Shown here in pieces: positions 11,331 through 64,000 of a stretch of DNA of 64,000 bases. Origin of the DNA: Patescibacteria group bacterium (GTDB taxonomy: Bacteria; Patescibacteriota; Microgenomatia; UBA12405); contig JAHIPV010000001.1 of the NCBI GenBank assembly GCA_018902845.1, positions 12,124 to 76,123 of the forward strand, in the 5' to 3' direction. Numbering within the stretch: the first letter of the stretch is position 1; every line of letters begins with the position of its first letter. The notes below the pieces were generated by a model. That model did no database searches. It was given only the letters and a program-made list of their open reading frames with translations, and was not told where the DNA came from. Both the position numbers and the translations under genes were made by a program.

Positions 11331-12044
11331 ATGCTTCTCACCAAAGAAAAAATCAATCAAAAAAAGGGAATAAAAGCCGAACAGACGGATCTTGTCGAAA
11401 CTATTTCAAAAGTCGATAAAACCAGCAAAAACCGTCGTTTTGTTATCATCGCTCTTTTAGTTACCATTGGCTTGTCCGCCATTTTTGCAATTTATGACCT
11501 AGTTAAAAAAACAACCCAAAACGGTAAATATACTGATTTTTTGTCAAAAATTTCCCTCTCTAAACCTCAAACCGATATACCAACAAAAGATATCTCAACA
11601 CCAAACATTGACATATCTAGCCTTATTGAAGAAAAAATTATCAATCATCAGGGTGTTTGGTCTTTTTACATCAAATATTATTCCTTCGCCTCGCCACAGC
11701 CTTCAGCGTCGGCGGGTTCTGATTCGGAAAAAATTATTTACACCAGAAACGAATCTGTTTTTTTCTCTAAAAACAATCCAAGCGAAATTTTAAAATCTCT
11801 AAAAGACCCAGATGATAAACAGGCAAAAATATTTACAAAAAACTTACCGGACGGTTTAGAAATCTATGAAAAAAATCAATCAACAGAAAATTCAATCGAA
11901 TCGCATCTTCTTATCATTCTTCCAAACAATAAACAAATCTTTATTCTTATTAAGACTACCGAAGTTAAAGACAATTCTCAGCTCCCATCCCTTATATCTC
12001 AACTCGTATCTGATATCTACTGGTCCCTCCTTCAATCAGACTAA
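11331..12044 (+). CDS. Hypothetical membrane-anchored protein
   Basis: 237-aa ORF with a single N-terminal TM (FVIIALLVTIGLSAIFAIY). No family recognised. Confidence 0.4.
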   Translation: MLLTKEKINQKKGIKAEQTDLVETISKVDKTSKNRRFVIIALLVTIGLSAIFAIYDLVKKTTQNGKYTDFLSKISLSKPQTDIPTKDISTPNIDISSLIEEKIINHQGVWSFYIKYYSFASPQPSASAGSDSEKIIYTRNESVFFSKNNPSEILKSLKDPDDKQAKIFTKNLPDGLEIYEKNQSTENSIESHLLIILPNNKQIFILIKTTEVKDNSQLPSLISQLVSDIYWSLLQSD

Positions 12045-17101: not shown

Positions 17102-17764
17102 TCACAATTTTCCACTTTCCCTTTTTCCATGAAAAAAAGCATATCCTAATCCCACTTTTTCCCCTTTCATTTTTGGCTTCATATATAAATATTGCCCCCC
17201 GAAAGCCACCAGGTTCACCAACCACCAGAACAAATTAAACCGTTTGTCATCCCGAGCACGGTCGAGGGATCCAGTTGGAAATGTAAAAAGATCTAATTTA
17301 TGCCTCCATCGGGATTGCCACGTCACTTCGTTCCTCGCAATGACGGTTTGGTCTACCCATCTTTTATTTTCCCCCACAAACTTTTCATAAATATTTTCTT
17401 TATTTAAAACTGCTTTCAAAAACATTAAATCACTCGCACTTATTTTTGTCTGCTTAAACTTTGGTAGTTCCAAACTACTTTCATCCAGCCACATATTAAA
17501 ACAAAACTCATCTTTTCTTTCTTTTTTTCCAACTCTTCGGTGGGGGATTTTCTTAAACCTTATATAAAAGTTCAAAAACAATCTAGTCATCCACAGCCTA
17601 TTTTTCTTCGTTATTACTAATATGTCTATATCATCATTTTTCTTTGCCCCGCCGGCTCCAACCGACCCGCTCACACCCACAAACAAAATATTTTTAAATC
17701 CCAACAAATGCTTTTTTACTAGATTCTCTGTCTTTTTTAGTTTATTTTTACTATATTTATTCAC
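17102..17764 (-). CDS. Nucleotidyltransferase-domain protein (Pol-beta superfamily) with an in-frame repeat insertion
   Basis: GVSGSVGAGGAKKNDDIDILVI minimal nucleotidyltransferase motif. Segment ...DLFTFPTGSLDRARDDKR... is encoded by the GC-rich element at 17245-17347. Confidence 0.5.
   Translation of the reverse strand: MNKYSKNKLKKTENLVKKHLLGFKNILFVGVSGSVGAGGAKKNDDIDILVITKKNRLWMTRLFLNFYIRFKKIPHRRVGKKERKDEFCFNMWLDESSLELPKFKQTKISASDLMFLKAVLNKENIYEKFVGENKRWVDQTVIARNEVTWQSRWRHKLDLFTFPTGSLDRARDDKRFNLFWWLVNLVAFGGQYLYMKPKMKGEKVGLGYAFFHGKRESGKL
17245..17347. repeat. GC-rich palindromic element (family A) inside a CDS, in-frame
   Basis: tgtcatcccgagcacggtcgagggatccagttggaaatgtaaaaag joined to the reverse complement of tgtcattgcgaggaacgaagtgacgtggcaatcccgatgg. 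Ends are inverted copies of TGTCATYSCGAG. Confidence 0.75.
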
Positions 17765-27929: not shown

Positions 27930-28422
27930 ATTTTTTTATTTTTCCAATTCTTCTTATGTGTCGTTCACTGCTGGAAAAAACAGTGTTTAAAAACATTTTA
28001 ACAATTTTTTTATTCATTTTTTCGTCTACCGAATACGCCGACAGGCACAACACATTAGCATCCTCATCTTCACGCGATTTTCTTGCTTGTTTTTCAGTAG
28101 TACACAATGCCGCCCTTACCCCTTTTACTTTATTTGCTACGATGCTTACTCCAACCCCCGATCCGCACAACAAAATACCAATACCTTTTTCTATCACTAC
28201 TTTTCCAGCCACCTTTAGGGCAAAACCCACATAATCATCACCTTTGTCGTATTTATCATTTCCCAAATCCCTATACTCCACCTCCCATTCTTCTAACCAT
28301 TCCTTAATCACTTCTTTTAGTTTGTATCCTCTGTGATCCGCTCCTAAATAAATCATATCCACTATTATCTTATACAATAAGTCATCCATGAAGCAAATAA
28401 ACATAAATAACAAACCTTTCAC
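27910..28422 (-). CDS. rpiB: Ribose-5-phosphate isomerase B (RpiB/LacAB family)
   Basis: IYLGADHRGYKLK...GILLCGSGVGVSIVANKVKGVRAA...ANVLCL. True start probably the internal Met (MIYLGADH). Confidence 0.8.
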   Translation of the reverse strand: MKGLLFMFICFMDDLLYKIIVDMIYLGADHRGYKLKEVIKEWLEEWEVEYRDLGNDKYDKGDDYVGFALKVAGKVVIEKGIGILLCGSGVGVSIVANKVKGVRAALCTTEKQARKSREDEDANVLCLSAYSVDEKMNKKIVKMFLNTVFSSSERHIRRIGKIKKYELERS

Positions 28423-29245
28423 TTATCAAATCAAGCGCAAGTCGATTCATTCCATTCACCTCCATATTAAGGGCAAAAATTCTTTCTATATTTCTTGCCC
28501 ATACCTCACCCCCAATTTTGTCATAAATAGATTTATTATAAAAAATTCTACCTGGATATTAAAAAACTCAAAAAAAATCTTTAGCTGCCCTAAACTCTCG
28601 CAACTCAAAAATCTAGGTATTTTAGGCAAAAAATATAAAATAAATATCACTAAATCCCCCAAAAATAGTTTTAGTATTAATCACAATACCAGCGTCATTC
28701 AGGTAACTGCCAATACGCTTTATCAACACCATCTCAAAAAACTTTTTGAAAAAAATCTCCGCCCTCTGGCTCTAGATTTAATCAAAAAAGAAATTAATGC
28801 TGTCATTCCCAATTCTTTTGTAGGGGCGACCCTTGCGGTCGCCCGCAGACATGGCAACCTGTCCGCCGTCAAAGAATCCCCCGCCTGCAACGTTGTAGCA
28901 ACTGCGGGCAGGCGTCGGAAAAAACCTGTCATCCCGAGCGTAGTCGAGGGATCCCGTCGGAACTGTAAAAGCTCACTCCTTCGTCCCACCAAAATTTCCG
29001 TTCGTAATCAAAAAACTCGTTTTGGATCCTGTTCAGCCAAGGGCAGTCTTTCCTTCAATTGGCAAATAATTTTTTTTCCGTCCGACAAATTCCGCCACAT
29101 TGTTCTTCATGAACTGGTTCATCTAAAAATAAAAAATCATTCCAAAAATTACTGGCACGCTCTCTCCCTTCTGGATCCCAACTGCAAAATCAACAATAAA
29201 TGGCTAAAAACTCACGGCAACCACCACTTTCTCATCAAGCCCTAA
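28388..29245 (+). CDS. YgjP-like (DUF45/SprT-like) metal-dependent hydrolase with a ~55-aa in-frame repeat insertion
   Basis: RFGSCSAKGSLSFNW...HIVLHELVHLKIKNHSKNYW (the WGSCS / HEL.H..NHS motifs of the YgjP family). Central segment ...GATLAVARRHGNLSAVKESPACNVVATAGRRRKKPVIPSVVEGSRRNCKSS... is encoded by the GC-rich element at 28799-28972. Confidence 0.6.
   Translation: MKQININNKPFTYQIKRKSIHSIHLHIKGKNSFYISCPYLTPNFVINRFIIKNSTWILKNSKKIFSCPKLSQLKNLGILGKKYKINITKSPKNSFSINHNTSVIQVTANTLYQHHLKKLFEKNLRPLALDLIKKEINAVIPNSFVGATLAVARRHGNLSAVKESPACNVVATAGRRRKKPVIPSVVEGSRRNCKSSLLRPTKISVRNQKTRFGSCSAKGSLSFNWQIIFFPSDKFRHIVLHELVHLKIKNHSKNYWHALSLLDPNCKINNKWLKTHGNHHFLIKP
28799..28972. repeat. Composite GC-rich palindromic element (family A) inside a CDS, in-frame
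   Basis: Hairpins ggcgacccttgcggtcgcc and cgcctgcaacgttgtagcaactgcgggcaggcg, followed by the core cctgtcatcccgagcgtagtcgagggatcccgtcggaactgtaaaag. Confidence 0.75.
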
Positions 29246-32874: not shown

Positions 32875-33532
32875 TATAATACCTCCACACTTAACTTACT
32901 GTTGCCTAATTGCAAAAAACCTCCAAAAGATTTCCAAATCCGAGGAGTTTTTAATTTGTCTAAAGCAACTAAGTTAAAAGTACCTTAACATCAATCAATG
33001 TGCGTTTTCATTAGTCATGATTGTTAGTATCAGAGGATGAAATCCTGATGATTTTGTTTACAAAATCTATTAGGATATTTTTTCAAAACTTTTTTCAGTT
33101 TATTTAAAACTGAACCCCTTGCAGATTAAAACCTGTCAAGGGTTGATACTAAGAGTTTGATCGTGGCTCAGGGTGAACGCTGGCGACGTGCCTAAGACAT
33201 GCAAGTCGAACGAGATTCGTATTTTACATAAGGAAATTACATAATAATTTTCTTGTGTAGAATACGATGACAGTGGCGAACGGGTGAGTAATAAGTACGA
33301 ACGTACCTCTAAGTGGAGCATAGCCTCGAGAAATCGTGGATAATACTCCATAGTCCTCGTATTTCATACAAGGAAATTCAAAGCACTAATATCTAAACTC
33401 AAAACTTTTTTGTTTTGGATTTTGAATATTTAGATTTTAAATTTATTTAGGATTTCGATATTAGAATTTAGGATTTTCTCGCATGGAATGCGAGGTAAAG
33501 ATTTATCGCTTAGAGAGCGGCGTACTCGCTAC

Positions 33533-33565
<33 letters not shown>

Positions 33566-34750
33566 GATGACGGCTACCGGCTCTTAGCGGAGGGTCCGGC
33601 ACAATGGGACTGAGACACGGCCCATACACCTACGGGTGGCAGCAGTTAGGAATATTGCGCAATGGACGAAAGTCTGACGCAGCGACGTCGCGTGTGGGAT
33701 GACGGCCTTCGGGTTGTAAACCACTTTTATTTCGTCATCATGGCGAGATGAATAAACAGCTACTAATTACGTGCCAGCAGTCGCGGTAATACGTAAGCTG
33801 TAAGCGTTACCCGGTTTTATTGGGCGTAAAGGGTCTGTAGGTGGTTTTTTAAGTCCTATTTCAAAGACTCCGACTTAATCGGAGAAAGGGGTAGGATACT
33901 GAAAGACTAGAGTTATATCGGGGTTACTGGAATTTATAGCGTAGGGGTAAAATCCGTGGATACTATAAAGAACACCAAGGGCGAAGGCGGGTAACTAGGT
34001 ATACACTGACACTGAAAGACGAAAGCTAGGGGAGCAAATCAGATTAGAGACCTGAGTAGTCCTAGCTGTAAACGATGTCTGTTAGTTCTACGAGCTTATG
34101 CTTGTGGGATGTAAGCTAACGCGTTAAACAGACCGCCTGGGGAGTATAGCCGCAAGGCCGAAACTCAAACGAATTGGCGGGGAGGCGCACAACCAGTGGA
34201 GCATGTGGTTTAATTCGATACGAAGCGATGAACCTTACCTGGGCTTGAAATCCTGTTTATGTTTTTCCCGAAAAGGAAAAACTCAGTGGCAGGACAGCTG
34301 TTGCATGGCTGTCGTCAGCTCGTGACGTGAGTTGTTCTCTTAAGTGAGGTAACGAGCGCAACCCCTATTCTGTGTTATTTTTTCACAGAAGACTGCTCAG
34401 CATTATTTTTGTTGGGAGGAAGGAGGGGACGACGTCAAGTCAGCATGATGCTTATGTCCAGGGCGACACACATCCTACAATGGGAAGTACAATGAGTTGC
34501 AATACCGCGAGGTGGAGCTAATCTATAAAACTTCCCTCAGTTGGGATTGCAGGCTGAAATTCGCCTGCATGAACTTGGAATTGGTAGTAATCGCAGATCA
34601 GCAGACTGCGGTGAATACGTTCTCGCCTCTTGCACACACAGCCCGTCAAATCAGCAAAGTTGAGGGTGCCCGAAGGACTCCGATCAATCGGAGGACTAAG
34701 GTAAATTCAGCGATGAGGGTTAAGTCGTAAATTGTTGCGACTCATGGAAG

Positions 34751-35471
34751 TAATTCCATGAACAAATCTGGCTGTATCGGGGAAATCTAAGTCCTAGTGT
34801 TAAAATTAGGATATGACAACCGCGAGGGAACCCGACCGTTTTTCTAAAAAACAACCGGGACTCCGTAGAGACTATACGCCAGCGCCTCAAATCAGTAAAT
34901 CTTATTTACTTGGAATTTTGCACGACGCCACAGAAAGAAAAACAACTTTTAGAATTAGTCAAAAAAGTGAAATTTTTGTCAAATTTATTGCCAAAGAAAT
35001 CAAAAGACTTGGTTCTGGAGCTTGGGTCTATAAAGAAGGGAAAAACAGAAATGTCTACGTTGTAGAATTTTCAAAAAGTTTTCTTAAAGGATTCAAGATA
35101 AAAACCAGACAAGACAAAATTGACTACATTCGAGGTTATTTTGATTCTGAGGGAGGTATTGCACATCATCCAAAAGTTCGTTTTTATATTTATTTTTCTC
35201 AAAAAGATATAAATGATCTTAAGGAAGTTAAGCAATGTCTCAAAGAATTAAATATTTCTTGTGGAAAAACGCATAATCCAAGCAAAAAAGTAGATCCTGA
35301 TTATTGGCGATTTTATATTTTAAGCAAATCTTACAAAGATTTTGCTAAAATTATTGGGTCCTTCCACCCAATCAAGAATCGTCTTTTGAGGATGAAGAGA
35401 TAGTCCGTACCCTTGGAAACAAGGGAATCGATTTTATTAGTTTTTTTAATAATTAAGTAAAATCAAATGAA
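34751..35471 (+). mobile_element. Intervening sequence (probable group I intron) in 16S rRNA at the E. coli ~1506 site, carrying a homing endonuclease ORF
   Basis: Insertion between conserved ...GGTTAAGTCGTAA and CAAGGTATCCGTACTGGAAGGTGCGGATGGATCACCTCCTT. Contains ORF 34813..35403. Confidence 0.6.
34813..35403 (+). CDS. LAGLIDADG-family homing endonuclease (intron-encoded)
   Basis: LLGILHDATE and IRGYFDSEGG are the two LAGLIDADG motifs of a single-chain homing endonuclease. The ORF lies wholly within the 16S insertion. Confidence 0.65.
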   Translation: MTTAREPDRFSKKQPGLRRDYTPAPQISKSYLLGILHDATERKTTFRISQKSEIFVKFIAKEIKRLGSGAWVYKEGKNRNVYVVEFSKSFLKGFKIKTRQDKIDYIRGYFDSEGGIAHHPKVRFYIYFSQKDINDLKEVKQCLKELNISCGKTHNPSKKVDPDYWRFYILSKSYKDFAKIIGSFHPIKNRLLRMKR

Positions 35472-44057: not shown

Positions 44058-44132
44058 AAAAAGAGGACCTGTCCTGTAGTTAAAAACGAAAAGAGGACCT
44101 GTCCTCCGTAGCTCCAGTTCACTGGAGCGAAG
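44058..44132 (-). terminator. Tandem intrinsic terminators for the minus-strand transcript
   Basis: Two copies of AAAGAGGACCTGTCCT. On the minus strand each forms a GAGGA-CAGG-TCCTC hairpin followed by a T-run; a CTCCAGTGAACTGGAG hairpin lies just upstream. Confidence 0.45.
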
Positions 44133-44464
44133 GAGGAGATGCTCAGGTATGACCCGAGGTCCAAAAAACGATTTAAAAAACTTACTACAAGCTTAACTTG
44201 CTTAAAACTTAATCTTTGAAAAACAAAACAAGTCAATTTTTCCAAAGTGTCGATTGTTTGTGATTCTACTCACTCTTAAATAATTCAAGAATCGAGACTC
44301 AAATTATCGTGTTCCAGTTTAGTTGACACCCTTACTTATTCCCTCTGGAATAGAAAATAAAAGGATGACTCTCTCGCTTAAGCCTAAGCTACAGCAAGAT
44401 TTAAATTGAAATTGCTACCGGTAGAATAACCGACACCACTTTCAACTCTCGAAAGATTAGCCCC
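44085..44464 (-). ncRNA. ssrA: Candidate tmRNA (ssrA), tentative
   Basis: Minus-strand 5' end GGGGCTAATCTTTCGAGAGTTG resembles the tmRNA 5' tRNA-like end. It is followed ~50 nt later by a short reading frame AAT TTC AAT TTA AAT CTT GCT GTA GCT TAG GCT TAA (tag ...NFNLNLAVA with tandem stops). Convergent with smpB. The 3' tRNA-like end could not be identified. Confidence 0.25.
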
Positions 44465-44633
44465 AGCAAGAGCTAGGACATTTCTTAAAGCACTGCCGAA
44501 TGTATTGGCATGTTTTTTTTGATTTTGTTTTACGGCTGTTAATCAAAGCCGGCTTGCAGTTTTTTAAAGTGCATTTTCTGTCGATGCAATTACATCTCCT
44601 TGAGCACAAATTATACCAAAAATTTCGCCAAAG

Positions 44634-45738: not shown

Positions 45739-46425
45739 ATGTCTTTTTTTCTGGATTTTTTATTTCCGTCTCGCTGTTATTCCTGTCAAAAAATCGGTCA
45801 GTATATTTGTCCAAAATGTCGGGTAAAACTAATTAACAAAGGCATTGATCCTTTTTTATCAAAAAAACTAGAAGCCTCTCTGTCTCTTTTTAAATATCAC
45901 CCGCCTCTAATCAAAGTTCTTCAAGATTTAAAATATCATTTTATTACCCATTTGGCCGATGAATTAGTTGAAATCGCAGTCAAAGAAATAGAAACAAGAT
46001 ATCCTTCCCTGCTCAAATACTGGCAAGCAAATAACTACCTATTAATTCCAATTCCATTACATCAAAAACGTCTAAACTGGCGCGGTTTTAATCAATCAGC
46101 CTTGCTGGCAAAAAAACTTGCTTACAATCTCAAGCTCCAATACTCAGACCAAATCCTTTTTAGGCTTAAATATACTCAACCACAAGCAAAAATCAAAAAT
46201 AAAAGTTTTCGCGCCACTAATATTTCCAATTCCTTTTCAGTTAGCACACTTGTCACCCCGCCGTGGCGGGGTCCCGTCGGAAATGTAAAAATTACATTTT
46301 CTCAATTTACTAACATAATTCTTTTTGACGATATTATCACCACCGGTTCCACCATAAAATCTGCCGTAGATACTCTAACAAAACACAATTTTAAATCAAT
46401 TTGGGCTCTTTCTTTGGCTGGTTAA
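45739..46425 (+). CDS. comFC: ComF-family protein (ComFC-like phosphoribosyltransferase with N-terminal zinc ribbon) carrying an in-frame repeat insertion
   Basis: CYSCQKIGQYICPKCR zinc ribbon and C-terminal PRTase motif ILFDDIITTGSTIKSA. Segment VSTLVTPPWRGPVGNVKITFSQF is encoded by the GC-rich element at 46250-46293. Confidence 0.65.
   Translation: MSFFLDFLFPSRCYSCQKIGQYICPKCRVKLINKGIDPFLSKKLEASLSLFKYHPPLIKVLQDLKYHFITHLADELVEIAVKEIETRYPSLLKYWQANNYLLIPIPLHQKRLNWRGFNQSALLAKKLAYNLKLQYSDQILFRLKYTQPQAKIKNKSFRATNISNSFSVSTLVTPPWRGPVGNVKITFSQFTNIILFDDIITTGSTIKSAVDTLTKHNFKSIWALSLAG
46250..46293. repeat. GC-rich palindromic element (family A) inside comFC, in-frame
   Basis: ttgtcaccccgccgtggcggggtcccgtcggaaatgtaaaaa. 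Compare gtcatcccgagcg..gtcgagggatcccgtcggaactgtaaaag at 28930. Confidence 0.7.
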
Positions 46426-47114: not shown

Positions 47115-47795
47115 TCAACAAACTTTCTTAAATCCTTCAATCATTTCTTTTAATTCTTTTTCCGGATCATCGGCGCAAACTATATCACTTGCCACCAAAA
47201 CTCCCTTAGCTCCCAATTTTAAGGCAATTTCGACATCTTTCTTGTTTTTTACACCAGCCCCAACTAAAACCGGTATCTTGCCACACATTTTAACCAATCT
47301 TTTTACCGCCTCAGGTTTTTCGCTGGATACGGATCTGTCTTTGCTGGCAATCAAATACGAGGGTTCATAGGCAATAAAATCCGGTTTTGTTTTTAATGCC
47401 CATTTTTCTGCTTGACCAATCGATCGTACACACAAAACAATTTCAAAACCCTTCCTCTTGTTTTTCAAAATTTTTTTTACTTTCCCGGGTGGAATTTTAT
47501 GCTCTGAATGATTCAAAAGGGTTCCGCTTGCTCCGGCCTTTTTCATTTGATTTGCCGAAATCCAACCAGTCCATCTACCGTCTTCGTATTCGTCTATGTT
47601 TTGACAATACAGTTTTAATCCGGTTTCCTTCTTGATTTTATAAATATCAACAGGGGAAACAGCCAAAACAACCTCAATCTTGCTTTCATCCATCACTTTC
47701 TTACAGATTTTTGCCAATTTTAAGGCCCCTTTCCCAAAAGTGTTTTTATAAAGTTTAAAATTTATAATTATCATATTTTTTGTCATTCCGACCAA
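47115..47795 (-). CDS. tpiA: Triosephosphate isomerase (short archaeal-type)
   Basis: IIINFKLYKN, LAVSP, LLNHSEHK (catalytic His), AYEPSYLI (catalytic Glu) and VLVGAGV phosphate loop. ~220 aa. True start probably the internal Met at ~47774. Confidence 0.75.
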   Translation of the reverse strand: MVGMTKNMIIINFKLYKNTFGKGALKLAKICKKVMDESKIEVVLAVSPVDIYKIKKETGLKLYCQNIDEYEDGRWTGWISANQMKKAGASGTLLNHSEHKIPPGKVKKILKNKRKGFEIVLCVRSIGQAEKWALKTKPDFIAYEPSYLIASKDRSVSSEKPEAVKRLVKMCGKIPVLVGAGVKNKKDVEIALKLGAKGVLVASDIVCADDPEKELKEMIEGFKKVC

Positions 47796-47879
47796 AGTGG
47801 AGGAATCTCTGAACTTGTTTCAGAAATCCTGCTACCGCAGAATACCTCAGACAAGCTGAGAGATCTCTCGGCTTTGCTC
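47770..47879. repeat. GC-rich palindromic element (family A), intergenic
   Basis: tttgtcattccgaccaaagtggaggaatctc...gagagatctctcggctttgctcgagatgacatt with inverted termini TGTCAT/ATGACA. Confidence 0.7.
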
Positions 47880-47890
47880 GAGATGACATT

Positions 47891-52320: not shown

Positions 52321-53472
52321 TCATACTTTGTCAAGAACCAACTCCAATCTTGCCTCTCTTTCCAATTTATCAATATTTTTCACAAATTCACCTTTTTTGG
52401 CTTTACAATATCCTGCAATTCCAACCATGGCCGCATTATCGGTATTTAATTCTTTTTTAAACGGCATAAAAATCTGTAAATCATTTTTTCTTGCTAATTT
52501 TCTCAAATCCTTTCTTAATCTCAAATTCGCCATCACTCCACCCGCCCCCATCAAGCTTTTCGGCTTAGTCATATCAATAGCCCTTTGAAGTTTTATTAGC
52601 AAACAATCAAAAACCGCCCTCTGATAACTTGACGCCAAATCATAAATTTTTTCTGCCACTCTCTCTTCTTTCCACTTTCTGATTTTGTAATAAAAACTGG
52701 TTTTTAATCCGGAAAATGAAAAATTGCAATTTTTGAATTTGCTCATTGGTCTTGGTAAATCCAAAAAATTTTCATCTCCATCTTCAGCTAACTTTTCTAT
52801 TATTGGTCCTCCCGGATATCCTAACCCCAACATTTTTGCCGCCTTATCCAAAGCCTCTCCGGCCGCATCATCTAGCGTTTCTCCAATAATTTCATATTTT
52901 CCAATCCCTTTCATCAAAACAAGTTTTGTATGTCCGCCAGAAACTGTTAATACCAAGGAGGGGAATTTTATTTTTCTTTCTGGTTTTCCTCTACTGTTTT
53001 TCAAAAAATTAGACAAAATATGTCCTTCGACATGGTTAACGGCTACTATTTTTTTACCGTATTTTTTAGCTAATTCTTTTGCTACCTCAATTCCCACCCC
53101 CAAAGCAATAGCCAGCCCCGGTCCTTGTGTCACTGCCACCACATCAATTTTTTCCATTCTCTCGTCAATTATTTTTCTTATTTTTTCATTTGCTTGCCCG
53201 CCGTAGCCTTTGGCGAAGGAGGGTAAATTAGAATTTGTTTGTAATTTGAGATTTGGTGCTTGTGATTTACAGGATATGGCCAGTTTTAAGGCTTGTCCTA
53301 AAACTGGCCATATCCTGTCCCTGTGCGCTCTTTTGGCAATATCCGGCACCACTCCTCCCCATTTTTTGTACAAATCTACTTGTGATGAAATCACATTAGA
53401 CAAAATTCTGTCATTTTCCAAGACTGCCACACAAGTATCATCGCAACTGGTTTCAATGGCCAATATTCTCAT
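52321..53472 (-). CDS. tsaD: tRNA N6-adenosine threonylcarbamoyltransferase TsaD (Kae1/YgjD family), with an in-frame ~35-aa insertion
   Basis: MRILAIETSCDDTCVAVLE, VAVNHVEGH and GGVMAN motifs. Extra segment ...KLQTNSNLPSFAKGYGGQANEK... coincides with the repeat element at 53205-53340. Confidence 0.85.
   Translation of the reverse strand: MRILAIETSCDDTCVAVLENDRILSNVISSQVDLYKKWGGVVPDIAKRAHRDRIWPVLGQALKLAISCKSQAPNLKLQTNSNLPSFAKGYGGQANEKIRKIIDERMEKIDVVAVTQGPGLAIALGVGIEVAKELAKKYGKKIVAVNHVEGHILSNFLKNSRGKPERKIKFPSLVLTVSGGHTKLVLMKGIGKYEIIGETLDDAAGEALDKAAKMLGLGYPGGPIIEKLAEDGDENFLDLPRPMSKFKNCNFSFSGLKTSFYYKIRKWKEERVAEKIYDLASSYQRAVFDCLLIKLQRAIDMTKPKSLMGAGGVMANLRLRKDLRKLARKNDLQIFMPFKKELNTDNAAMVGIAGYCKAKKGEFVKNIDKLEREARLELVLDKV
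53205..53340. repeat. Family B element (GCGAAGGAGG + AT-rich tail + 20-bp inverted repeat) inside tsaD, in-frame
   Basis: gcctttggcgaaggagggtaaattagaatttgtttgtaatttgagatttgg followed by the perfect inverted repeat acaggatatggccagtttta / taaaactggccatatcctgt. Related copy at 54300-54400. Confidence 0.6.
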
Positions 53473-53509
53473 GTTGGAAATTATACTACTTATGGTTTAT
53501 TATTAATCT

Positions 53510-54082
53510 ATGCCTGTTCAAAAAAACAAACAATCTTTTTTCTTTCTTTTTCTAATTGCCCTTTTTTTTATTCTTTCTTCTATTTATGTCTATTCCTATC
53601 TTTCTTCAAAAATATCAAAAGAAATGGTTGTTGATAACAGTTCAAGTTTTTATATCCCAACTGTCACCAACATTCCGGAGCCATCCATCTTTCCGTCTAT
53701 TACGCCAGCCGGTATAACCGGACCATATCTAAAAACTTTTTATTCAGATATTGACAATTTTGAAATCACATATTTTTCTACTCGCCAATTATATGAAGAC
53801 AAAGATGGCACCTCTAACCGCTATGTTTTTGCCAAAACCGGAGGTACAAACTTTGTAGTTCATGTTGGTGAAAGTTGGTCATGGATTCATCCGGACAGGC
53901 AATTTACCAATGATTTAAAAATTGCCGGCTTTGACACTTTCAGATACGATACAACTTCTCAGACAATTTTTGATTTACAAAAAGACGATACAAAATATAC
54001 TCTTCAATGCATTCACAATGGTATTGAGTCTCTCAAATCCGAATGCCTCGATTTTGTCCAAAGCTTCAAGCTAACAAACTAA
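53510..54082 (+). CDS. Hypothetical membrane-anchored protein
   Basis: N-terminal TM (FFFLFLIALFFILSSIYVYSYL) and ~150-aa extracytoplasmic domain. No family recognised. Confidence 0.4.
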   Translation: MPVQKNKQSFFFLFLIALFFILSSIYVYSYLSSKISKEMVVDNSSSFYIPTVTNIPEPSIFPSITPAGITGPYLKTFYSDIDNFEITYFSTRQLYEDKDGTSNRYVFAKTGGTNFVVHVGESWSWIHPDRQFTNDLKIAGFDTFRYDTTSQTIFDLQKDDTKYTLQCIHNGIESLKSECLDFVQSFKLTN

Positions 54083-55301
54083 ACCCAATCTCTCTTTTTC
54101 TTTTTCCTTTATACTCAAACTCAACTTTCACAATTCTTGCTTTTTTCTTTAATTTTCTAAAATTTTTATCTCCCATATTCTCCGGCCATTCAACACAGGC
54201 AATCACGCCGGTTTTAAATAAATCCAAAAATCCAATCTCATCAAACTCAAATTCCTTACTTAATCTATACAAATCCATATGCAAAAATCTTTTATAGTTT
54301 TGCTTGTCCTCCATAGCTTTAGCGAAGGAGGAAATTTTAATATTTGAATTTTGAAGTTGTTTTGAATTTGAGATTTTAGATTTTAGATTTAATTTGTATT
54401 CATTACAAATAGTAAAAGTAGGGGACACAATCCTTTTTTTTATCCCCAAAATTTTTCCAATCGCTCTGCTAAAAACTGTTTTTCCTGCTCCTAGCTCTCC
54501 ACTCAAACAAAACACAACCAGCCGACTGTCATTCCGACCGAATCCGCCAGCTGGCAAAAAAGGATCACCCTGAGCCCCCCCAGCGTCATCCTGAGCGTAG
54601 CGAAGGATCCCCCCGGACAACATCTTCTTAAAAATAAACCTCGCAATTCTCCCTGTTTCTTTTTCTGAATTCGATATAAATTTTTTGGCCGAGCCAATTA
54701 CCATGTCTCCTTTTCTCAAAACTTTCACTTCCGCTTCGGTTGCATCAATCACCGTTGACGGTTTATTCCTTGGTAATCTTCCTGCATCCGCTACTAGATC
54801 AACCATATTTTTTTTCTTTTTTGACAAAATATTCAAAAACGATTTAACCGAATAATGCGGTGATCTCCCCGAAAGATTAGCCGATGTTGCCGTAATTGGT
54901 TTTTTTAAAATATTTACTAAATCCAAAATATATTTACTCTCGGGGATTCTTATTCCCAAAGTCCCATCTTCCGCCTCTATTCCCTTTGCAACTTTTCGTT
55001 TTCCTTTATTCACCACCGTAAAAGGCCCGGGTAATAAATTCTTATAAATTCTTTTAGCCATTTCTGATAAATCCACATATTCTTCGGCCATTTTTTGGCT
55101 AGTTACTGCTATCGAAATTGCCTTTCCTGTCCATCTATTCTTAAAAGCCAGTAATTTATCTACGGCTTTTTGGTTACAAGCATCCACGGCCAAAATATAA
55201 ACAGTATCCGAAGGAAACAGCACCAATCCTCCGTTTTTTATCACTCTAATCGTTTCTTTCAAAACACTTTTATGGTTTTTTGCTATATCCAAAATTTTCA
55301 C
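54066..55301 (-). CDS. Fused L-threonylcarbamoyladenylate synthase (TsaC/YrdC domain) - TsaE (YjeE P-loop ATPase) protein, with two in-frame repeat insertions
   Basis: N-terminal YrdC domain (NGGLVLFPSDTVYILAVDACNQKAVDKL...GIRIP...ATSANLSG). C-terminal TsaE domain (LSGELGAGKTVFSRAIGK...SPTFTI). The linker ...RYAQDDAGGAQGDPFLPAGGFGRNDSRL... is encoded by element 54536-54618, and ...NSNIKISSFAKAMEDKQ... by the AT-tailed element 54300-54400. Confidence 0.7.
   Translation of the reverse strand: MKILDIAKNHKSVLKETIRVIKNGGLVLFPSDTVYILAVDACNQKAVDKLLAFKNRWTGKAISIAVTSQKMAEEYVDLSEMAKRIYKNLLPGPFTVVNKGKRKVAKGIEAEDGTLGIRIPESKYILDLVNILKKPITATSANLSGRSPHYSVKSFLNILSKKKKNMVDLVADAGRLPRNKPSTVIDATEAEVKVLRKGDMVIGSAKKFISNSEKETGRIARFIFKKMLSGGILRYAQDDAGGAQGDPFLPAGGFGRNDSRLVVFCLSGELGAGKTVFSRAIGKILGIKKRIVSPTFTICNEYKLNLKSKISNSKQLQNSNIKISSFAKAMEDKQNYKRFLHMDLYRLSKEFEFDEIGFLDLFKTGVIACVEWPENMGDKNFRKLKKKARIVKVEFEYKGKRKREIGFSLLA
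54300..54400. repeat. Family B element (GCGAAGGAGG + tandem gattttagattt tail) inside tsaC-tsaE, in-frame
   Basis: gctttagcgaaggaggaaattttaatatttgaattttgaagttgttttgaatttgagattttagattttagattt. Compare 53205-53260 and the 16S V2 expansion 33395-33470. Confidence 0.6.
54536..54618. repeat. GC-rich palindromic element (family A) inside tsaC-tsaE, in-frame
   Basis: ctgtcattccgaccgaatccgccagctggc...caccctgagcccccccagcgtcatcctgagcgtagcgaaggatccccccgg. Confidence 0.75.
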
Positions 55302-55350: not shown

Positions 55351-57645
55351 ATGGACAAGCGATACGATCCCGGTTCCGAACAAAAAATTTACCGGCTTTG
55401 GGAAAAATCGGGCGCATTCACTCCCACGGTACCAAAAAACAAGGCAAGGCAAAGCCCTCCTTTTACCATAATCCTTCCCTTACCAAACGCCAGCGATCCA
55501 ATGCACATGGGTCATGCTATGTTTGTTATCCAAGATATACTTTGTCGTTGGCATCGCATGATGGGTGAGCCGGTTTTGTGGCTTCCGGGTGCAGACCATG
55601 CCGGTATCGAAACCCAATATATTTTTGAAAAAAGATTATCGGAAACAGGCAAATCCAGATTCGATTATGATAGAAAAACTCTTTATAAGCTGATTTGGGA
55701 TTATGTTGAAGAAAACCGAAAAATTAATCAGTTTCAGTTAAAGGAACTTGGTTTTTCTTTGGACTGGACTCGTTATCATTACAGTTTAGAACCAAACATT
55801 GTCAATCAAGTCTTAAAAACTTTTAGGAAACTTTACCAAGACGACTTGCTTTATAGGGCCGAAAGAATCGTTAATTATTGCACTCATTGCGGTACTGCTT
55901 TTTCCGATTTGGAAATTGACCACGTCGAAAGAGATGATTTTCTCTATTATCTTGATTACGGTCCTATAAAAATTGCCACCACTAGGCCCGAGACTATTTT
56001 TGTCGACGTAGCGGTGGCTGTCAATCCAAAAGACAAAAGATACAAAAACTTGATTGGCAAAAAAGCTATCATTCCCCTGATAAACAAAGAAATTCCCATT
56101 ATAGCCGATGATCTGGTTGAGATTGATTTTGGCACCGGTGCCCTAAAAATTACTCCGGCTCATGACTCTACCGATTTTGAAATCGGTCAAAAACACCAGC
56201 TACCAACTATTTCCTGCATAAAACTTTCGGGAAAGATGGTAAACACTATTCCTGAAATTGACGAACTCTATCCCTCCCAAGCCCGAAAAAAAACAATCGA
56301 AATGCTGGAAAAACAAGCCAAGCTAGTCAAAACCGAACCCTTGCATCACACCATTGGTATTTGTTATCGCTGTAAAAACGTTATAGAATCTTTACCGGTT
56401 CCTCAATGGTATGTAAAAACAAAACCCTTAGCCAAGCCGGCCATAGAGTCAGTCAAAAAGGGAGAAACCAAAATTTTTCCGCCAAGATTCAAAAAAACTT
56501 ATCTCGATTGGATGGAAAACATCCGAGATTGGAACATTAGCCGTCAAATTGTTTGGGGTCCACAAATTCCGGCCTATTATTGTCTTGATTGTAATCCGAC
56601 TATCCAGATCAATTTCATCGACAAAAAAGGAAAAATTATTTCCGGTTTATATCAGGATCTAAAAAATAAATATCAATTCCAGCAAATCAAAAAAGGCCTA
56701 CAAACCCTAAATGCTCCTATTACGGCGGATTATTTCTTAAAAAATTCAAAAAACATTTGTCCCAAATGCAAGGTTAGTCACGTTTTGCAAGAAACCGACA
56801 CCTTTGACACTTGGTTTTTATCCGGACAATGGCCCCTAACTACCTTAGGATTCAACGTCGACAATCCGGCCAACAGCTCGCCAGATTTTGACTATTTTTA
56901 CCCCACCAGTGTTTTAGACACTCTTTGGGATATTTTATTTTTTTGGGTTGGCAGAATGATGATTTTTGGTTTTTATTTAGCAAAAAAAACACCTTTCAAA
57001 ACCGTTCACCTGCACGCCAAAGTAACAGATGAAAAAGGTCAAAAAATGAGCAAGTCAAAAGGCAATGTTATTAATCCCAGTAGTACGGTTCAAAAATACG
57101 GCGCCGATGCTTTGCGTTTGGCCTTAGTTTATGGCACGGCTCCAGCTAGCAATATCTCTCTTTCAGACAAAAAAATCGAAGCTATGAGGAATTTTACTAA
57201 CAAAATTTGGAATGCTTCCCGTTTTGTCAAAATCATTATCAACCGCTTCAAAGAGCAAAACCCAAACTTAGAAATCAATCTGTCATTGCGAGGACTCCGA
57301 CTTCACGTCGGAGGACGTGGCAATCCCGATGATGATGAAATCCTGTCTAATCTAAACCAAATCATCAAATCAACTACTGCCAATCTAGAAAAATACCGTT
57401 TTGGTCAAGCCTCAGAAGACTTATATCAATTTTTTTGGCATCAATTTTGTGATGTTTACATAGAAAAAATCAAAGACAGAAAAGAAGATGTAATTCCAGT
57501 TTTGATGCATGTCCTAATAACCAGTCTCAAACTTCTTCATCCCTTTATTCCTTTTGTCACCGAAACTATTTATCAGGATTTCAAACAAGAATTTAGTTTA
57601 AAAAAGGATTTATTAATCACTTCTCTGTGGCCAAAAGCAAAATGA
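55351..57645 (+). CDS. valS: Valine--tRNA ligase (compact form) with an in-frame repeat insertion
   Basis: HMGHA (HIGH), PGADHAGIETQ and KMSKSKGNVI motifs. Segment EINLSLRGLRLHVGGRGNPDDDEIL is encoded by element 57280-57327. Confidence 0.8.
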   Translation: MDKRYDPGSEQKIYRLWEKSGAFTPTVPKNKARQSPPFTIILPLPNASDPMHMGHAMFVIQDILCRWHRMMGEPVLWLPGADHAGIETQYIFEKRLSETGKSRFDYDRKTLYKLIWDYVEENRKINQFQLKELGFSLDWTRYHYSLEPNIVNQVLKTFRKLYQDDLLYRAERIVNYCTHCGTAFSDLEIDHVERDDFLYYLDYGPIKIATTRPETIFVDVAVAVNPKDKRYKNLIGKKAIIPLINKEIPIIADDLVEIDFGTGALKITPAHDSTDFEIGQKHQLPTISCIKLSGKMVNTIPEIDELYPSQARKKTIEMLEKQAKLVKTEPLHHTIGICYRCKNVIESLPVPQWYVKTKPLAKPAIESVKKGETKIFPPRFKKTYLDWMENIRDWNISRQIVWGPQIPAYYCLDCNPTIQINFIDKKGKIISGLYQDLKNKYQFQQIKKGLQTLNAPITADYFLKNSKNICPKCKVSHVLQETDTFDTWFLSGQWPLTTLGFNVDNPANSSPDFDYFYPTSVLDTLWDILFFWVGRMMIFGFYLAKKTPFKTVHLHAKVTDEKGQKMSKSKGNVINPSSTVQKYGADALRLALVYGTAPASNISLSDKKIEAMRNFTNKIWNASRFVKIIINRFKEQNPNLEINLSLRGLRLHVGGRGNPDDDEILSNLNQIIKSTTANLEKYRFGQASEDLYQFFWHQFCDVYIEKIKDRKEDVIPVLMHVLITSLKLLHPFIPFVTETIYQDFKQEFSLKKDLLITSLWPKAK
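57280..57327. repeat. GC-rich palindromic element (family A) inside valS, in-frame
   Basis: tgtcattgcgaggactccgacttcacgtcggaggacgtggcaatcccg. Near-identical core to 9905-9975 and 17300-17345. Confidence 0.8.
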
Positions 57646-59527: not shown

Positions 59528-59572
59528 CGTCATCCTGAGCCTGTCGAAGGATCCCCTAGGAATTGAAAAACC
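59528..59572. repeat. GC-rich palindromic element (family A), intergenic upstream of trpS
   Basis: cgtcatcctgagcctgtcgaaggatcccctaggaattgaaaaacc. Compare 62207-62246 and 54580-54618. Confidence 0.75.
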
Positions 59573-60833: not shown

Positions 60834-61826
60834 ATGAACAAAAATAAGCAAAAATCTCAAATTATTATTTACCAAACTGATGATGGAAAAACCCGGGTTG
60901 AGGTTCGTCTTGAGCATCAAAACGTCTGGTTGACGCAAAAACTTATCGCAAAACTGTTTAAGACAACAGTGGCGAATATTAATATTCATCTTAAAAACAT
61001 TTTCAAAACAGGAGAACTTCAACAAAATTCAGTTATTAAGGATTTCTTAATAACTGCCTCGGACGGAAAAAAATACAAGACTAAGATGTACGGGATAGAA
61101 GTTATCGTAGCTATTGGCTATCGGGTTAATTCGAAGCGTGGCACACTTTTCCGCCAATGGGCAACAGATCGTTTAAAGGAATATATGGTTAAGGGATTTG
61201 CGATGGATGATGTACGTTTGAAGCAGGGCGGTCATAAATCACGCTTTTTTGAGGAATTATTGGAACGTATCCGAGATATTCGATCAAGCGAGAGAATGTT
61301 ATACCAAAAAGTGACAGATATCTATGCAACCGGTATTGACTATCACAAAAATGCTAAAGAAACAGAACTTTTTTTTAAGACGGTTCAAAATAAGATACAT
61401 TTCGCAGTCAGCGGGAAAACTGCTACAGAATTAATCACAGAGCGTGCCGATAACAAAAAACCACTGATGGGACTTACAAATTTTTCAGGTCTTCGCCCAA
61501 TTCAGCGTGATATTTACATCGCGAAAAACTACTTGAACAAAAATGAGCTGAAGATGCTCAATCGTATTGTTGATGCATATTTATCGTTTGCTGAGATTCA
61601 AGCCAAAACTGAACATGCCATGACCATGAAAGATTGGATAAATAAACTTAATGAGTATTTGACCCTTTTGGGGAAAGGTGTTCTAGAAAATGCGGGTACG
61701 GTGCGAGCAAAAGAAGCTGAAGAAAAAGCTAACAGGGAATATAAAATATATAAAAAAGAACAAAATAAGAATTATATTTCCGACTTTGATAGAGTTGCTA
61801 AAAAGTATCTACGTGCCAGTAAATAA
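60834..61826 (+). CDS. RhuM-family (virulence/prophage-associated) protein
   Basis: IIIYQTDDGKTRVEVRLEHQNVWLTQKLIAKLFKTTVANINIHLKNIF... is the characteristic RhuM N-terminal block. Confidence 0.6.
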   Translation: MNKNKQKSQIIIYQTDDGKTRVEVRLEHQNVWLTQKLIAKLFKTTVANINIHLKNIFKTGELQQNSVIKDFLITASDGKKYKTKMYGIEVIVAIGYRVNSKRGTLFRQWATDRLKEYMVKGFAMDDVRLKQGGHKSRFFEELLERIRDIRSSERMLYQKVTDIYATGIDYHKNAKETELFFKTVQNKIHFAVSGKTATELITERADNKKPLMGLTNFSGLRPIQRDIYIAKNYLNKNELKMLNRIVDAYLSFAEIQAKTEHAMTMKDWINKLNEYLTLLGKGVLENAGTVRAKEAEEKANREYKIYKKEQNKNYISDFDRVAKKYLRASK

Positions 61827-62148: not shown

Positions 62149-64000
62149 TCATTCCTGTTCTTCATCTCCAATCTCAATAAGTTCTCCAAAAACCCAACCT
62201 TCAACTTGCCCTGAGCCTGTCGAAGGATCAAGTTGGATTTTTACCCAGCCATCTTTTTCTTCTAAAGAAGGGAAACTTTGACCATCAGTCACCTTGGCTA
62301 AAACCTCTCCTTTCAAAGACGGCTCGCTTCTTACCACAACCCAACTTCCCTCATCGGCAGTAATCGTCGCCAGAGTTTCTCCGGCAACCGCGCCTTTGAC
62401 TTTTCCCTCTTCTTTTTCCGGAGTGTTGAAAGTATAGTAAGCATCATAAACATAGTTTTTGTTTTGGGACATGACTTCAAAATAATAAAGTTTTCCGGGT
62501 TCCAAATCTTTCAGCTCCATCCGGTGTTCCTTTACCCGTTTGTCGGATTGAATTTTTTTGCCGTATGAGGTGTTAAGACCGTAGTTAACCACTGAAGTAG
62601 CGTAGTGGTTGGTTCCCCAAACAACCATTGCTGAGGTTGAGTTAACCTCTTCTATTTTTACAAAAAGAATCTTGGTTGGTTCGTTGTCAAAGACAATGGC
62701 TATAAATGTGCTGGTGGCGATCCTTAAACGGGTGGCTAAATTCTGGGCTTCTTCCGAAGCCGGCTTGCGGATTGATTCTCTACCGGTTTGCCAGGCAGTT
62801 GCCAGCCTGGATGTTTGTTGGCTGATTGTTTTTACTCCTTCTCCAACATTAGAGGCTAAAGCCTTAACTCCGTCAGTCGTCTTGTTGATGGTATTTCCTA
62901 CTGTCCTATTAACAACCTCCGCTCCATTAGCCAGAGCTAAAAGTCCATCTCTAATTACCCCCGATGTTTTTTGGGTCAGATTAAAGTAGCCCCTGGCCAA
63001 AAACAGCTTTCGTTCTTCATTTTTTTGTTTTCTTGAGGCAAGGAACTGGTTGGTTGTTTTGCCAACCGCACCAGCCACAGCACTAACGCCATTCTTTATC
63101 TGATTGCCGACAAAAGCCAGTCCCTGGCCGATTTTTCCGGCTAAGAATTTAGCGCTATCAACTGTTTTCCACCAAAGATTGGCAATTCCGGTAAAAATTT
63201 TACCAATCGCTTCGGCAATTACGGATGGTTCTTGTAACTCTTCAGGGATAACAATACCCTGTTCTTTGATAACTTCTTCTATCTTTTCTCTGGGAATCCC
63301 TTCTTTTTCCAATTCTTCAATTACTTCTTCAACTTCAGGAATTTGAGCAATCTCTTCATAAGTTTTAATGGTTAAAGTAAAAGAAGAAGAACTACCTCCA
63401 TTACTTGCTTTATCTTTGCCGGTTAAAGTTATTCTGTAAACACCCAAAGGCAAGTCGGTTGTGGGCGTGTAGGAAAAGCTGGAATATTTATTACTGGTTT
63501 GTTTGCTGTTATCAGTGATTTTTGAACCATCACTACTCCAATAAAGTTCACTGATATTAACCGTCGCCAAAGTATGGAGGTTGTAAACTCCAAGATAATT
63601 TCTTTTTTCAAATTTAATTTCTACCTCTTTAGGTCCTGAAGCAACTTTCAAACCATCCCCTGTCAGCGAGTCGGTTGTTTTTCCATAAATAGTCGGTGTT
63701 TTATCAGTGGTAGCTAGGCTATCAGCAGAAGAAGTGTCATTTATTTGTGTTGCTTCAACGCTCGGCCCGTTTCTGTCAACAAACAAAGTTCTTGATTCTT
63801 CTTTCTCATTGCCGGCGTTATCCACCGCCTTGACTTTCCAATATCTTTTGCCCTCTTTTAATTTGCCATCATTATTTCCTGAATTGGAATCAGAACTCCA
63901 ATCGTTTGAAGATTTAGTGTAAACAGAAATATAATTGTTGGTGGTATCAGAATCACTAAAGTTTTCATAATGAATTAAATATTTACTGGTTTCATAATCG
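62149..64000 (-). CDS. Large secreted/surface protein with Ig-like/FN3-like repeats and a C-terminal SH3b domain; 5'-partial, with an in-frame repeat insertion
   Basis: Listed ORF starts with GTG at 63825, but the frame stays open to 64000 (...YWKVKAVDNAGNE..., typical of Ig-like surface repeats). C-terminal GWVKIQLDP...GWVFGELI SH3b-like. STGSGQVEG is encoded by element 62207-62246. Confidence 0.55.
   Translation of the reverse strand, partial: DYETSKYLIHYENFSDSDTTNNYISVYTKSSNDWSSDSNSGNNDGKLKEGKRYWKVKAVDNAGNEKEESRTLFVDRNGPSVEATQINDTSSADSLATTDKTPTIYGKTTDSLTGDGLKVASGPKEVEIKFEKRNYLGVYNLHTLATVNISELYWSSDGSKITDNSKQTSNKYSSFSYTPTTDLPLGVYRITLTGKDKASNGGSSSSFTLTIKTYEEIAQIPEVEEVIEELEKEGIPREKIEEVIKEQGIVIPEELQEPSVIAEAIGKIFTGIANLWWKTVDSAKFLAGKIGQGLAFVGNQIKNGVSAVAGAVGKTTNQFLASRKQKNEERKLFLARGYFNLTQKTSGVIRDGLLALANGAEVVNRTVGNTINKTTDGVKALASNVGEGVKTISQQTSRLATAWQTGRESIRKPASEEAQNLATRLRIATSTFIAIVFDNEPTKILFVKIEEVNSTSAMVVWGTNHYATSVVNYGLNTSYGKKIQSDKRVKEHRMELKDLEPGKLYYFEVMSQNKNYVYDAYYTFNTPEKEEGKVKGAVAGETLATITADEGSWVVVRSEPSLKGEVLAKVTDGQSFPSLEEKDGWVKIQLDPSTGSGQVEGWVFGELIEIGDEEQE
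62207..62246. repeat. GC-rich palindromic element (family A) inside the surface-protein gene, in-frame
   Basis: cttgccctgagcctgtcgaaggatcaagttggatttttac. Confidence 0.7.

Follow-up and report, generated by a model that had tools for sequence, protein, structure and literature searches.

How did two enzymes that bacteria normally encode separately come to share one polypeptide, and what might they do there? The question is raised by a single open reading frame (ORF), here called tsaCE, on a 64,000-nucleotide stretch of contig JAHIPV010000001.1 from a Patescibacteria group bacterium (assembly GCA_018902845.1); the window, in what follows, is this whole stretch, which has a G+C content of about 35% and genes resembling those of a small-genome Patescibacteria organism. 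Bacterial synthesis of N6-threonylcarbamoyladenosine (t6A) normally employs separate TsaC, TsaB, TsaD, and TsaE proteins. In tsaCE, by contrast, a threonylcarbamoyl-AMP (TC-AMP) synthase of the TsaC/YrdC type and a P-loop ATPase of the TsaE type are encoded as one chain, as an earlier note made from the sequence alone had proposed. The explanation that best accounts for the data overall, and one that we consider probable, is that tsaCE is an ancient bifunctional gene, that the repeats found in it are later in-frame loop insertions, and that its product may couple the synthesis of TC-AMP to its delivery. The gene and its parts lie as follows (aa, amino acids).

54066..55301, minus strand: tsaCE, one ORF with a GTG start, 411 aa, without an internal stop; TsaC N-terminal, TsaE C-terminal
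54708..55244, minus strand: TsaC/YrdC-type threonylcarbamoyl-AMP synthase domain, aa 20-198 (PF01300, TIGR00057; KRSN tetrad K54, R56, S140, N142)
54672..54707, minus strand: interdomain junction, modeled as a short beta-hairpin, aa 199-210 (from insert-free relatives and AlphaFold2)
54078..54671, minus strand: TsaE P-loop ATPase domain, split by two inserts, aa 211-408 (PF02367, TIGR00150)
54477-54500, minus strand: Walker A motif GELGAGKT of the TsaE domain, aa 268-275

Both families were assigned above the curated cutoffs of their hidden Markov models (HMMs). The Pfam model PF01300 (Sua5_yciO_yrdC) matched over profile positions 2-178 of 178 (E 1.9e-42, 145.2 bits against a cutoff of 25.1), and the NCBIfam model TIGR00057 reached 161.1 bits (cutoff, 123.2). 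The C-terminal part, for which the earlier note had called for a score as TsaE, was matched by PF02367 (E 1.4e-26, 93.4 bits against 26.6) and by the equivalog model TIGR00150 (78.8 bits against 60.1), each in two stretches because the second of the two inserts interrupts the domain. In the same Pfam and NCBIfam scans, no SUA5 domain was matched in the C-terminal part, and PF00814 was absent from the protein, TsaD being encoded separately.

The sequence motifs that had been quoted for the two domains (SDTVYILAVDA, ATSANLSG, GELGAGKT, and SPTFTI) are all present. The TsaE domain carries SPTF, HxDxY, and EWPE motifs in addition to its P-loop, and the combination of GxxGxGKT with SPTF, HxDxY, and EW is what we take to be the hallmark of this family. 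Across 119 aligned sequences, the invariant TsaE residues comprise G268, G271, G273, K274, T275, S293, P294, and T295 as well as H341, D343, Y345 (HxDxY), E371, and W372 (EW). In the TsaC domain, K54 and R56 (within FKNRW) and S140 and N142 (within TSAN) are likewise invariant across the 119 aligned fusions; this KRSN tetrad is the criterion that tells TsaC from its paralog YciO (PMC4615747).

An AlphaFold2 model of the protein, built from the same 119 sequences, had a mean predicted local distance difference test (pLDDT) score of 84.4 and a predicted template modeling (pTM) score of 0.82. When searched with Foldseek, its N-terminal domain matched YrdC, Sua5, TsaC2, and HypF structures, and its C-terminal domain matched the TsaE structures 5np9, 1htw, and 6n9a_E; no solved chain with both TsaC and TsaE domains was among the structure matches. 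Judged by sequence, tsaCE is a complete TsaC joined to a complete TsaE, with the catalytic motifs intact in both. The first domain would then be active as a TC-AMP synthase, and the second would be active as an ATPase.

The fusion is not peculiar to this contig. From 5.8 billion proteins, we took the 120 best homologs of tsaCE; every one of them (120/120) carries both Pfam domains in the order TsaC then TsaE, at lengths of 337 to 425 aa, and those with names belong to Candidatus Shapirobacteria or Patescibacteria. Proteins of this type are already in the databases, annotated just as L-threonylcarbamoyladenylate synthase. When each GTDB species was represented by one genome, scanning these genomes brought up 414 stretches that encode a relative. 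We examined the best 80 of these loci, mostly from Candidatus Shapirobacteria; all 77 that are uncut by a contig end span both domains, with identities of 39 to 67%. Finally, 1.84 billion cluster representatives (50% identity) were searched exhaustively with HMMER, an insert-free homolog serving as the query; 189 matched at an E value of ≤1e-30, and among the best 150 of these the C-then-E fusion was present in 135, at 34 to 73% identity.

Homologs that lack the inserts reveal where the two domains truly meet. In the insert-free proteins P0029 (346 aa) and P0020 (348 aa), the TsaC match covers aa 20-198, and TsaE (PF02367) follows from aa 211 as one HMM stretch (aa 211-342/345, profile positions 2-127 of 128). 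The true linker is therefore only about 12 residues long. Within it, D199 and S210 are invariant among the 119 sequences and L200, L208, and I209 nearly so, and the AlphaFold2 model places two strands there (aa 201-204 and 207-210), with mean pLDDT scores of 89 to 91 over 10-residue blocks. The sequence evidence indicates that the fused gene is genuine and ancient and that it is typical of a clade of Microgenomates, within the candidate phyla radiation (CPR), that is labeled mostly Candidatus Shapirobacteria.

Several records with unexpected titles carry the same kind of locus. Among the loci L003 to L082, a Shapirobacteria-type tsaCE-tsaD arrangement is encoded by many species-representative metagenome-assembled genomes titled "uncultured Gammaproteobacteria bacterium" (binchicken/SRP isolates), by one record titled "Candidatus Methanoperedens," and by one titled "Clostridia." Such titles would seem to be placeholders or wrong assignments.

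The repeats in this region fall into TsaE itself and into TsaD, the transferase subunit encoded farther along the same strand.

54516..54622 (approximate), minus strand: insert 1 of TsaE, the GC-rich repeat block GGILRYAQDDAGGAQGDPFLPAGGFGRNDSRL, aa about 229-260
54291..54392, minus strand: insert 2 of TsaE, an AT-rich repeat followed by an SFAKAMEDKQ module, aa about 304-337
52321..53472, minus strand: tsaD, t6A transferase subunit, 383 aa (PF00814, 265 bits; TIGR03723, 361.2 bits against a cutoff of 296.1)
53164..53274, minus strand: repeat-derived insert in TsaD, containing SCKSQAPNLKLQTNSNLPSFAKGYGGQANEK, aa about 67-103 (repeat pair D14 and sequence comparison)

Insert 1 is the block that the earlier note had taken for a repeat-encoded linker between the domains. 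The GC-rich block is indeed there, but it lies 20 residues past the real junction, within TsaE, where helix a1 (aa 213-229) precedes it and the P-loop strand (aa 261-268) follows. The block contains two hairpin units (54528-54544 and 54585-54609) that read on the plus strand, antisense to the gene; its fold energy was not significantly better than that of shuffled sequences (z = -1.49). In an alignment, the closest relative, L002, whose fused protein is 90% identical, lacks the insert altogether. The more distant L083 (78% identity) shares unit 1 with the window at the same site and lacks unit 2, which is found in the window only. Among 95 homologs, the length of this site ranges from 21 aa, which is also the most common value, up to the 51 aa of the window.

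Insert 2 occupies the hairpin between the SPTF-bearing strand and the HxDxY-bearing strand (FLHxDLY) of TsaE, a site that ranges from 12 to 47 aa in the same homologs (mode, 12) and measures 42 aa in the window. Unrelated inserts, for example of the PPLTKGG, PSLEKGGL, and SPFDKGD types, occur at both TsaE sites in different lineages. The insert in TsaD derives from an element related to insert 2, as judged from repeat pair D14 and sequence comparison, and it too lies at a variable site, which is 27 aa long in 26 of 47 TsaDs and longest, at 64 aa, in the lineage of the window. All three inserts are predicted to be disordered; in the tsaCE model, the pLDDT falls below 50 nowhere but at aa 231-257 (insert 1) and aa 310-324 (insert 2).

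The GC-rich units have the form tGTCA-stem-loop-stem-TC, often followed by CCGTCGGAAnTGTAAAA, and there are 13 of them in the 64 kb. Five are intergenic, and eight lie in frame, in either orientation, within six ORFs.

GC-rich hairpin units: 9865-9975, 17246-17344, 28928-28953, 46252-46273, 47782-47887, 54528-54609, 57282-57325, 59529-59553, and 62204-62237
ORFs with hairpin units: a nucleotidyltransferase-like ORF (17102-17764), a YgjP-like ORF (28388-29245), 45739-46425, tsaCE, valS, and 62149-63825

In valS (55351-57645, plus strand), for instance, the in-frame unit LSLRGLRLHVGGRGNPDDD sits at 57282-57325 in sense orientation. The stems vary between copies yet stay complementary (ATCC/GGAT, ATCCC/GGGAT, ATTGC/GCAAT, ACCCCGC/GCGGGGT, and others), with the caveat that some copies came from a regular expression that demanded complementarity. 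That expression (GTCA-stem-loop-stem-TC) is unspecific, with 20 matches against 14 ± 4 in shuffled sequences, and we defined the family by repeat-finding families together with the conserved tail CCGTCGGAAnTGTAAAA. Pattern searches that allowed three mismatches recovered just one or two copies, because the copies are too divergent. In a second type of element, AT-rich repeats resembling AAATCYMAAAT precede CCTCCTTCGCYAAAGSCTAYGGMGGRCAAGC, the part that encodes ...SFAK(A/G)...; this element occurs in TsaE (54291-54392) and TsaD (53164-53274) in the same orientation and frame, and a similar AT-rich repeat lies at 33414-33454, within the 16S rRNA gene.

Such elements recall the Rickettsia palindromic elements (RPEs), which Ogata et al. 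reportedly described in 2000 as selfish repeats residing in frame inside protein-coding genes. By sequence features, the repeats of the window resemble RPEs in being short, in having hairpin potential, in occurring between genes as well as in frame within essential genes, and in being inserted in either orientation in loops that tolerate them. The hairpin family in particular has both intergenic copies and in-frame copies in several unrelated ORFs, and the presence of insert 1 in the window, its absence at the orthologous site of L002, and the sharing of unit 1 with the more distant L083 are suggestive of mobility. The differences are an unrelated sequence family, shorter units (about 25 to 45 nucleotides), and a CPR host. 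In the literature searched, we found nothing relevant on in-frame palindromic elements in Patescibacteria.

Could the repeats have made the fusion, or could the fusion be an error? In the first scenario, which is that of the earlier note, a repeat landing between adjacent tsaC and tsaE genes removed the stop and start codons and so joined them. A block of the repeat family does lie between the Pfam TsaC match and the P-loop, and elements of this family do enter other genes of the same genome in frame. Nevertheless, relatives free of inserts (P0020, P0028, P0029, and P0080) are already fused through the conserved 12-residue junction, L002 is fused without the repeat, and the repeat itself sits within TsaE, past helix a1. 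Moreover, fusions at 34 to 73% identity are far older than this lineage-specific repeat; its motif, with 10 occurrences in the window, is missing in 71 of 84 related sources. Element-mediated joining is thus extremely improbable. In the second scenario, tsaCE would be an artifact of assembly, binning, or gene calling, such as an overlooked frameshift or stop or a chimeric contig; the window is metagenomic sequence, and its repeats are able to cause misassembly. Here, the identical protein is found on independent JGI contigs (5 member sequences, 2 contigs), the architecture is repeated across hundreds of independent assemblies (NCBI, ENA, JGI, and Logan), and the junction residues are conserved. 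This recurrence across homologs and independent contigs leads us to regard an artifact as practically excluded. On the sequence evidence, the fusion is older than the repeats, and the GC-rich and AT-rich elements are later, lineage-specific, in-frame insertions into two TsaE loops that vary in length, with a third insertion of this kind in TsaD. These insertions show that, in genomes as small as these, defined loops of essential translation-related enzymes can accommodate peptides of selfish or slippage origin; annotation runs the risk of mistaking such inserts for linkers or domain boundaries.

The C-then-E order is one of several ways in which t6A enzymes have been joined in Microgenomates. 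The search of cluster representatives also turned up a protein of the reverse order, TsaE then TsaC (P0269), and a search with this protein collected a family of 52 clusters collinear with it (P0269 and P0271 to P0315; 35 to 75% identity), among them a Candidatus Curtissbacteria protein encoded on a 527-kb contig. The same search yielded fusions of TsaC to a miniature TsaB (P0321 and P0388), in which the PF00814 segment is about 100 aa long, and a triple fusion, TsaE-TsaC-miniTsaB, of 446 aa (P0285). Mini-TsaB also stands alone as a protein of about 104 aa that corresponds to the N-terminal half of TsaB (TIGR03725 positions 2-90 of 212; 79.9 bits against a cutoff of 69.3), and a profile of the mini-TsaB segment matched 1,685 proteins at an E value of ≤1e-3. 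In the literature searched, we found no paper that describes a half-size TsaB. On long contigs of related CPR genomes, tsaE, tsaC, and mini-tsaB are adjacent in that order.

L084, 6944-8315: tsaE-tsaC-miniTsaB operon
L085, 2677-4048: tsaE-tsaC-miniTsaB operon
L086, 6770-8312: tsaE-tsaC-miniTsaB operon
L087, 880-2422: tsaE-tsaC-miniTsaB operon

Loss of stop codons in such an operon accounts for fusions of the types E-then-C, C-then-B, and E-C-B. The C-then-E order of the window cannot be explained in this way and therefore points to an independent fusion event.

Compared with the canonical system of TsaC (or TsaC2) and TsaBDE in Escherichia coli and Thermotoga maritima, the locus shows the same named protein families (four in the canonical set), matching catalytic motifs, and a tsaD gene nearby, and the chemistry, TC-AMP synthesis followed by transfer to A37, is presumably the same. 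It differs in that TsaC and TsaE form one 411-aa chain with a short conserved junction, in that no TsaB was found nearby (relatives of the same class have a 104-aa TsaB), and in that TsaE and TsaD carry repeat-derived loop insertions. Sua5/TsaC2 proteins, the best Foldseek matches, likewise have an N-terminal YrdC-type domain followed by a second alpha/beta domain, but there the second domain is SUA5, whereas in tsaCE it is the P-loop ATPase TsaE. Against these chains, the YrdC domain alone superposes; the whole-chain root mean square deviation is about 15 Å, and the query-normalized TM-score is about 0.45.

The fusions named in the t6A literature searched are TsaC/HemK, Kae1-Bud32, TobZ/HypF, and TsaN. 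In TobZ, HypF, and the pandoravirus protein TsaN, as in tsaCE, fusion puts an adenylate-forming YrdC module close to the transferase step, and in TobZ and HypF it forms a channel for the labile intermediate. The partner there is a Kae1/TsaD-like transferase, however, while in tsaCE it is the regulatory ATPase TsaE, and proximity to TsaD would be indirect, via docking of TsaE. Archaeal Kae1-Bud32 (MJ1130/PRPK) resembles tsaCE as a fusion within the t6A pathway that includes an ATP-hydrolyzing accessory subunit; yet Bud32 has no relationship to TsaE, and it is joined to the transferase, not to the TC-AMP synthase. Kae1 and Bud32 are fused in 25 of 53 Archaea, which the literature uses as Rosetta stone evidence of functional linkage (PMC4615747). 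Further parallels are the TsaE-TsaC, TsaC-miniTsaB, and triple fusions of other Microgenomates, made of the same domains in the same bacterial class and likewise implying that TsaC acts in physical association with the accessory subunits of TsaBDE; where TsaE is part of them, E precedes C, whereas C precedes E in tsaCE. The claim that the arrangement is noncanonical therefore stands: a TsaC-TsaE fusion is not described in the t6A literature searched, in which the lone string "TsaE-TsaC" denotes a cloning cassette, and no paper on TsaE or t6A genes in CPR bacteria was found there.

What could such a fusion do? TsaE and tRNA compete for one site on TsaB-TsaD, and the ATPase of TsaE cycles the complex (PMC10484737, PMC6009658); the literature gives the delivery route of TC-AMP as unknown (PMC10484737). 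Missoury et al. proposed in 2018 that TsaE with ATP readies TsaD for TC-AMP from TsaC and that hydrolysis then frees TsaE (PMC6009658). By analogy, the C-then-E fusion, the reverse-order fusion, and the operon fit this model of TsaE-assisted loading. In tsaCE, the TsaC domain would make the unstable TC-AMP out of threonine, bicarbonate, and ATP, and the TsaE domain would dock, in an ATP-dependent manner, on the dimerization module of TsaD. With both on a single chain, TC-AMP would be made at TsaD just as TsaE keeps TsaD open and tRNA excluded. Hydrolysis of ATP would then free tsaCE, tRNA would bind, and the threonylcarbamoyl group would pass to A37. Read as Rosetta stone evidence, the clade-wide C-then-E fusion, the independent E-then-C fusion, and the operon suggest that TsaC contacts the TsaE-bound TsaD complex. 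Structural and kinetic tests of the model might also profit from the fusions as stable, naturally occurring constructs; the quaternary TsaBCDE complex could so far not be isolated.

Several points weigh against the view of tsaCE as an ancient bifunctional protein that couples the two steps. The activity of tsaCE, its complex formation, and its channeling are all things that we infer from sequence, and the clade label rests on the record titles of relatives just 55 to 58% identical. The tsaCE and tsaD genes are split by an opposite-strand gene and are probably not cotranscribed. The docking partner of tsaCE is uncertain because the searches of the window, and of 10 kb on either side of the 80 related C-then-E loci, turned up no TsaB. 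According to Missoury et al., a TobZ-like docking of TsaC would use the face of TsaD opposite to TsaE (PMC6009658); given a junction that is short and apparently rigid, this calls for another geometry or for delivery in trans to the second TsaD of a tetramer.

Finally, a neutral fusion could have arisen from gene adjacency in a streamlined genome. In this case, the fusion would be real but a mechanistically neutral by-product of adjacency and streamlining, with no channeling or coupling. The adjacent or overlapping tsaE-tsaC-tsaB genes of relatives, from which fusions arise easily, speak for such an origin, as does the occurrence of several fusion combinations, which random stop codon loss would give. 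Nevertheless, the C-then-E order cannot be reached from the observed tsaE-tsaC-tsaB order by stop codon loss alone, yet it is clade-wide with a conserved junction; the high pTM score suggests that the two domains pack in a defined way; and the existence of both fusion orders argues that proximity itself was selected. We consider a neutral fusion improbable, if well worth keeping in mind. A different alternative concerns the partner: Shapirobacteria may have lost TsaB, with TsaD homodimerizing like mitochondrial Qri7 and tsaCE docking on the helical bundle of the TsaD dimer, so that two polypeptides would suffice for t6A. It would agree with the lack of TsaB in the regions covered, when relatives keep mini-tsaB beside tsaC, and with the fact that TsaB of the same class has already been cut to a 104-aa half-protein. 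On the other hand, only about 20 kb per genome were covered, a gene of 104 aa could quite plausibly lie elsewhere in the genome, and a 2015 survey of 9,176 bacterial genomes never reported TsaE without TsaB (PMC4615747). In that survey, most bacteria had both proteins, TsaE was lost in some symbionts, and both were lacking only in two Mycoplasma (PMC4615747). A system without TsaB is thus unlikely, and a small tsaB probably lies elsewhere in the genome. Less likely still is the full two-polypeptide system, in which TsaB is lost, a rigid tsaCE docks on a Qri7-like TsaD dimer, and TC-AMP is made and passed on in the TsaE-bound, tRNA-excluded state. If true, nature would here have wired the hypothetical TsaE-assisted loading step covalently. 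The reduction of TsaB to half its size and its possible absence suggest that an essential t6A system is being pared down in new ways among CPR bacteria.

The searches behind these statements bear out, for the window and for 10 kb on either side of the 80 related loci, the remark that no TsaB homolog is visible. Pfam scans of 57 window ORFs (each listed ORF of at least 150 aa outside 50-58 kb, minus three that overlap longer ORFs) found no second PF00814 (TsaB/TsaD) protein in the 64 kb. An HMM built from 120 mini-TsaBs (P0390 to P0509) matched none of the window ORFs of at least 45 aa, and neither a full-length nor a mini-TsaB was found in the flanks of the 80 loci. With phmmer, the window TsaD had no paralog among the window ORFs, and an approximate E. 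coli TsaB query, run against the ORFs of the window and the loci, retrieved only TsaD ORFs and missed the TsaD of the window, a weak negative.

The tsaD gene shares the strand of tsaCE and follows it after 593 bp, close to the 600 bp stated in the earlier note; in 73 of 81 sources, a tsaD is likewise found downstream in the same orientation. The picture of a simple same-strand cluster does not hold, however, since a gene of opposite orientation lies in between.

53510..54082, plus strand: opposite-strand gene between tsaCE and tsaD, 190 aa (from the ORF list; no Pfam match)

This gene overlaps the 3' end of tsaCE by 17 nucleotides, and homologs occupy the equivalent position in more than 60 related loci (among L001 to L082). 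Its product has a hydrophobic N-terminal segment, a variable linker (in relatives, one rich in Pro and Thr), and about 110 aa of C-terminal domain in which two cysteines are conserved (YTIQCVHNG...LKTECE). Being of the size of TsaB, it was considered as a TsaB in disguise and rejected on account of its hydrophobic N terminus, the Pro/Thr-rich linker of its relatives, its cysteine domain, and the lack of PF00814.

Elsewhere in the window, the 16S rRNA gene (33145-34772) measures 1,628 nucleotides against a model of 1,533 positions, about 95 nucleotides extra, and a LAGLIDADG_3 homing-endonuclease-like ORF (34813-35403, plus strand) begins 41 nucleotides past its 3' end; a 23S rRNA gene was not detected anywhere in the 64 kb. 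A match to transfer-messenger RNA (tmRNA) at 44131-44599 (minus strand) is 469 nucleotides long against a model of 374 positions, with a GC-rich island at 44093-44163, and this tmRNA probably carries an insertion. An AbiEii toxin (1590-2402, plus strand) with an upstream partner that has no Pfam match (959-1600), an AAA_14/DUF4143 ATPase (2409-3572, minus strand), and a RhuM-family protein (60834-61826, plus strand) resemble genes of defense systems or mobile elements. Two class A penicillin-binding protein paralogs with transglycosylase and transpeptidase domains stand in tandem (12041-14284 and 14334-16439, both minus strand), sharing about 71 to 75% DNA identity in three in-register segments at a spacing of 2455 to 2461 nucleotides.

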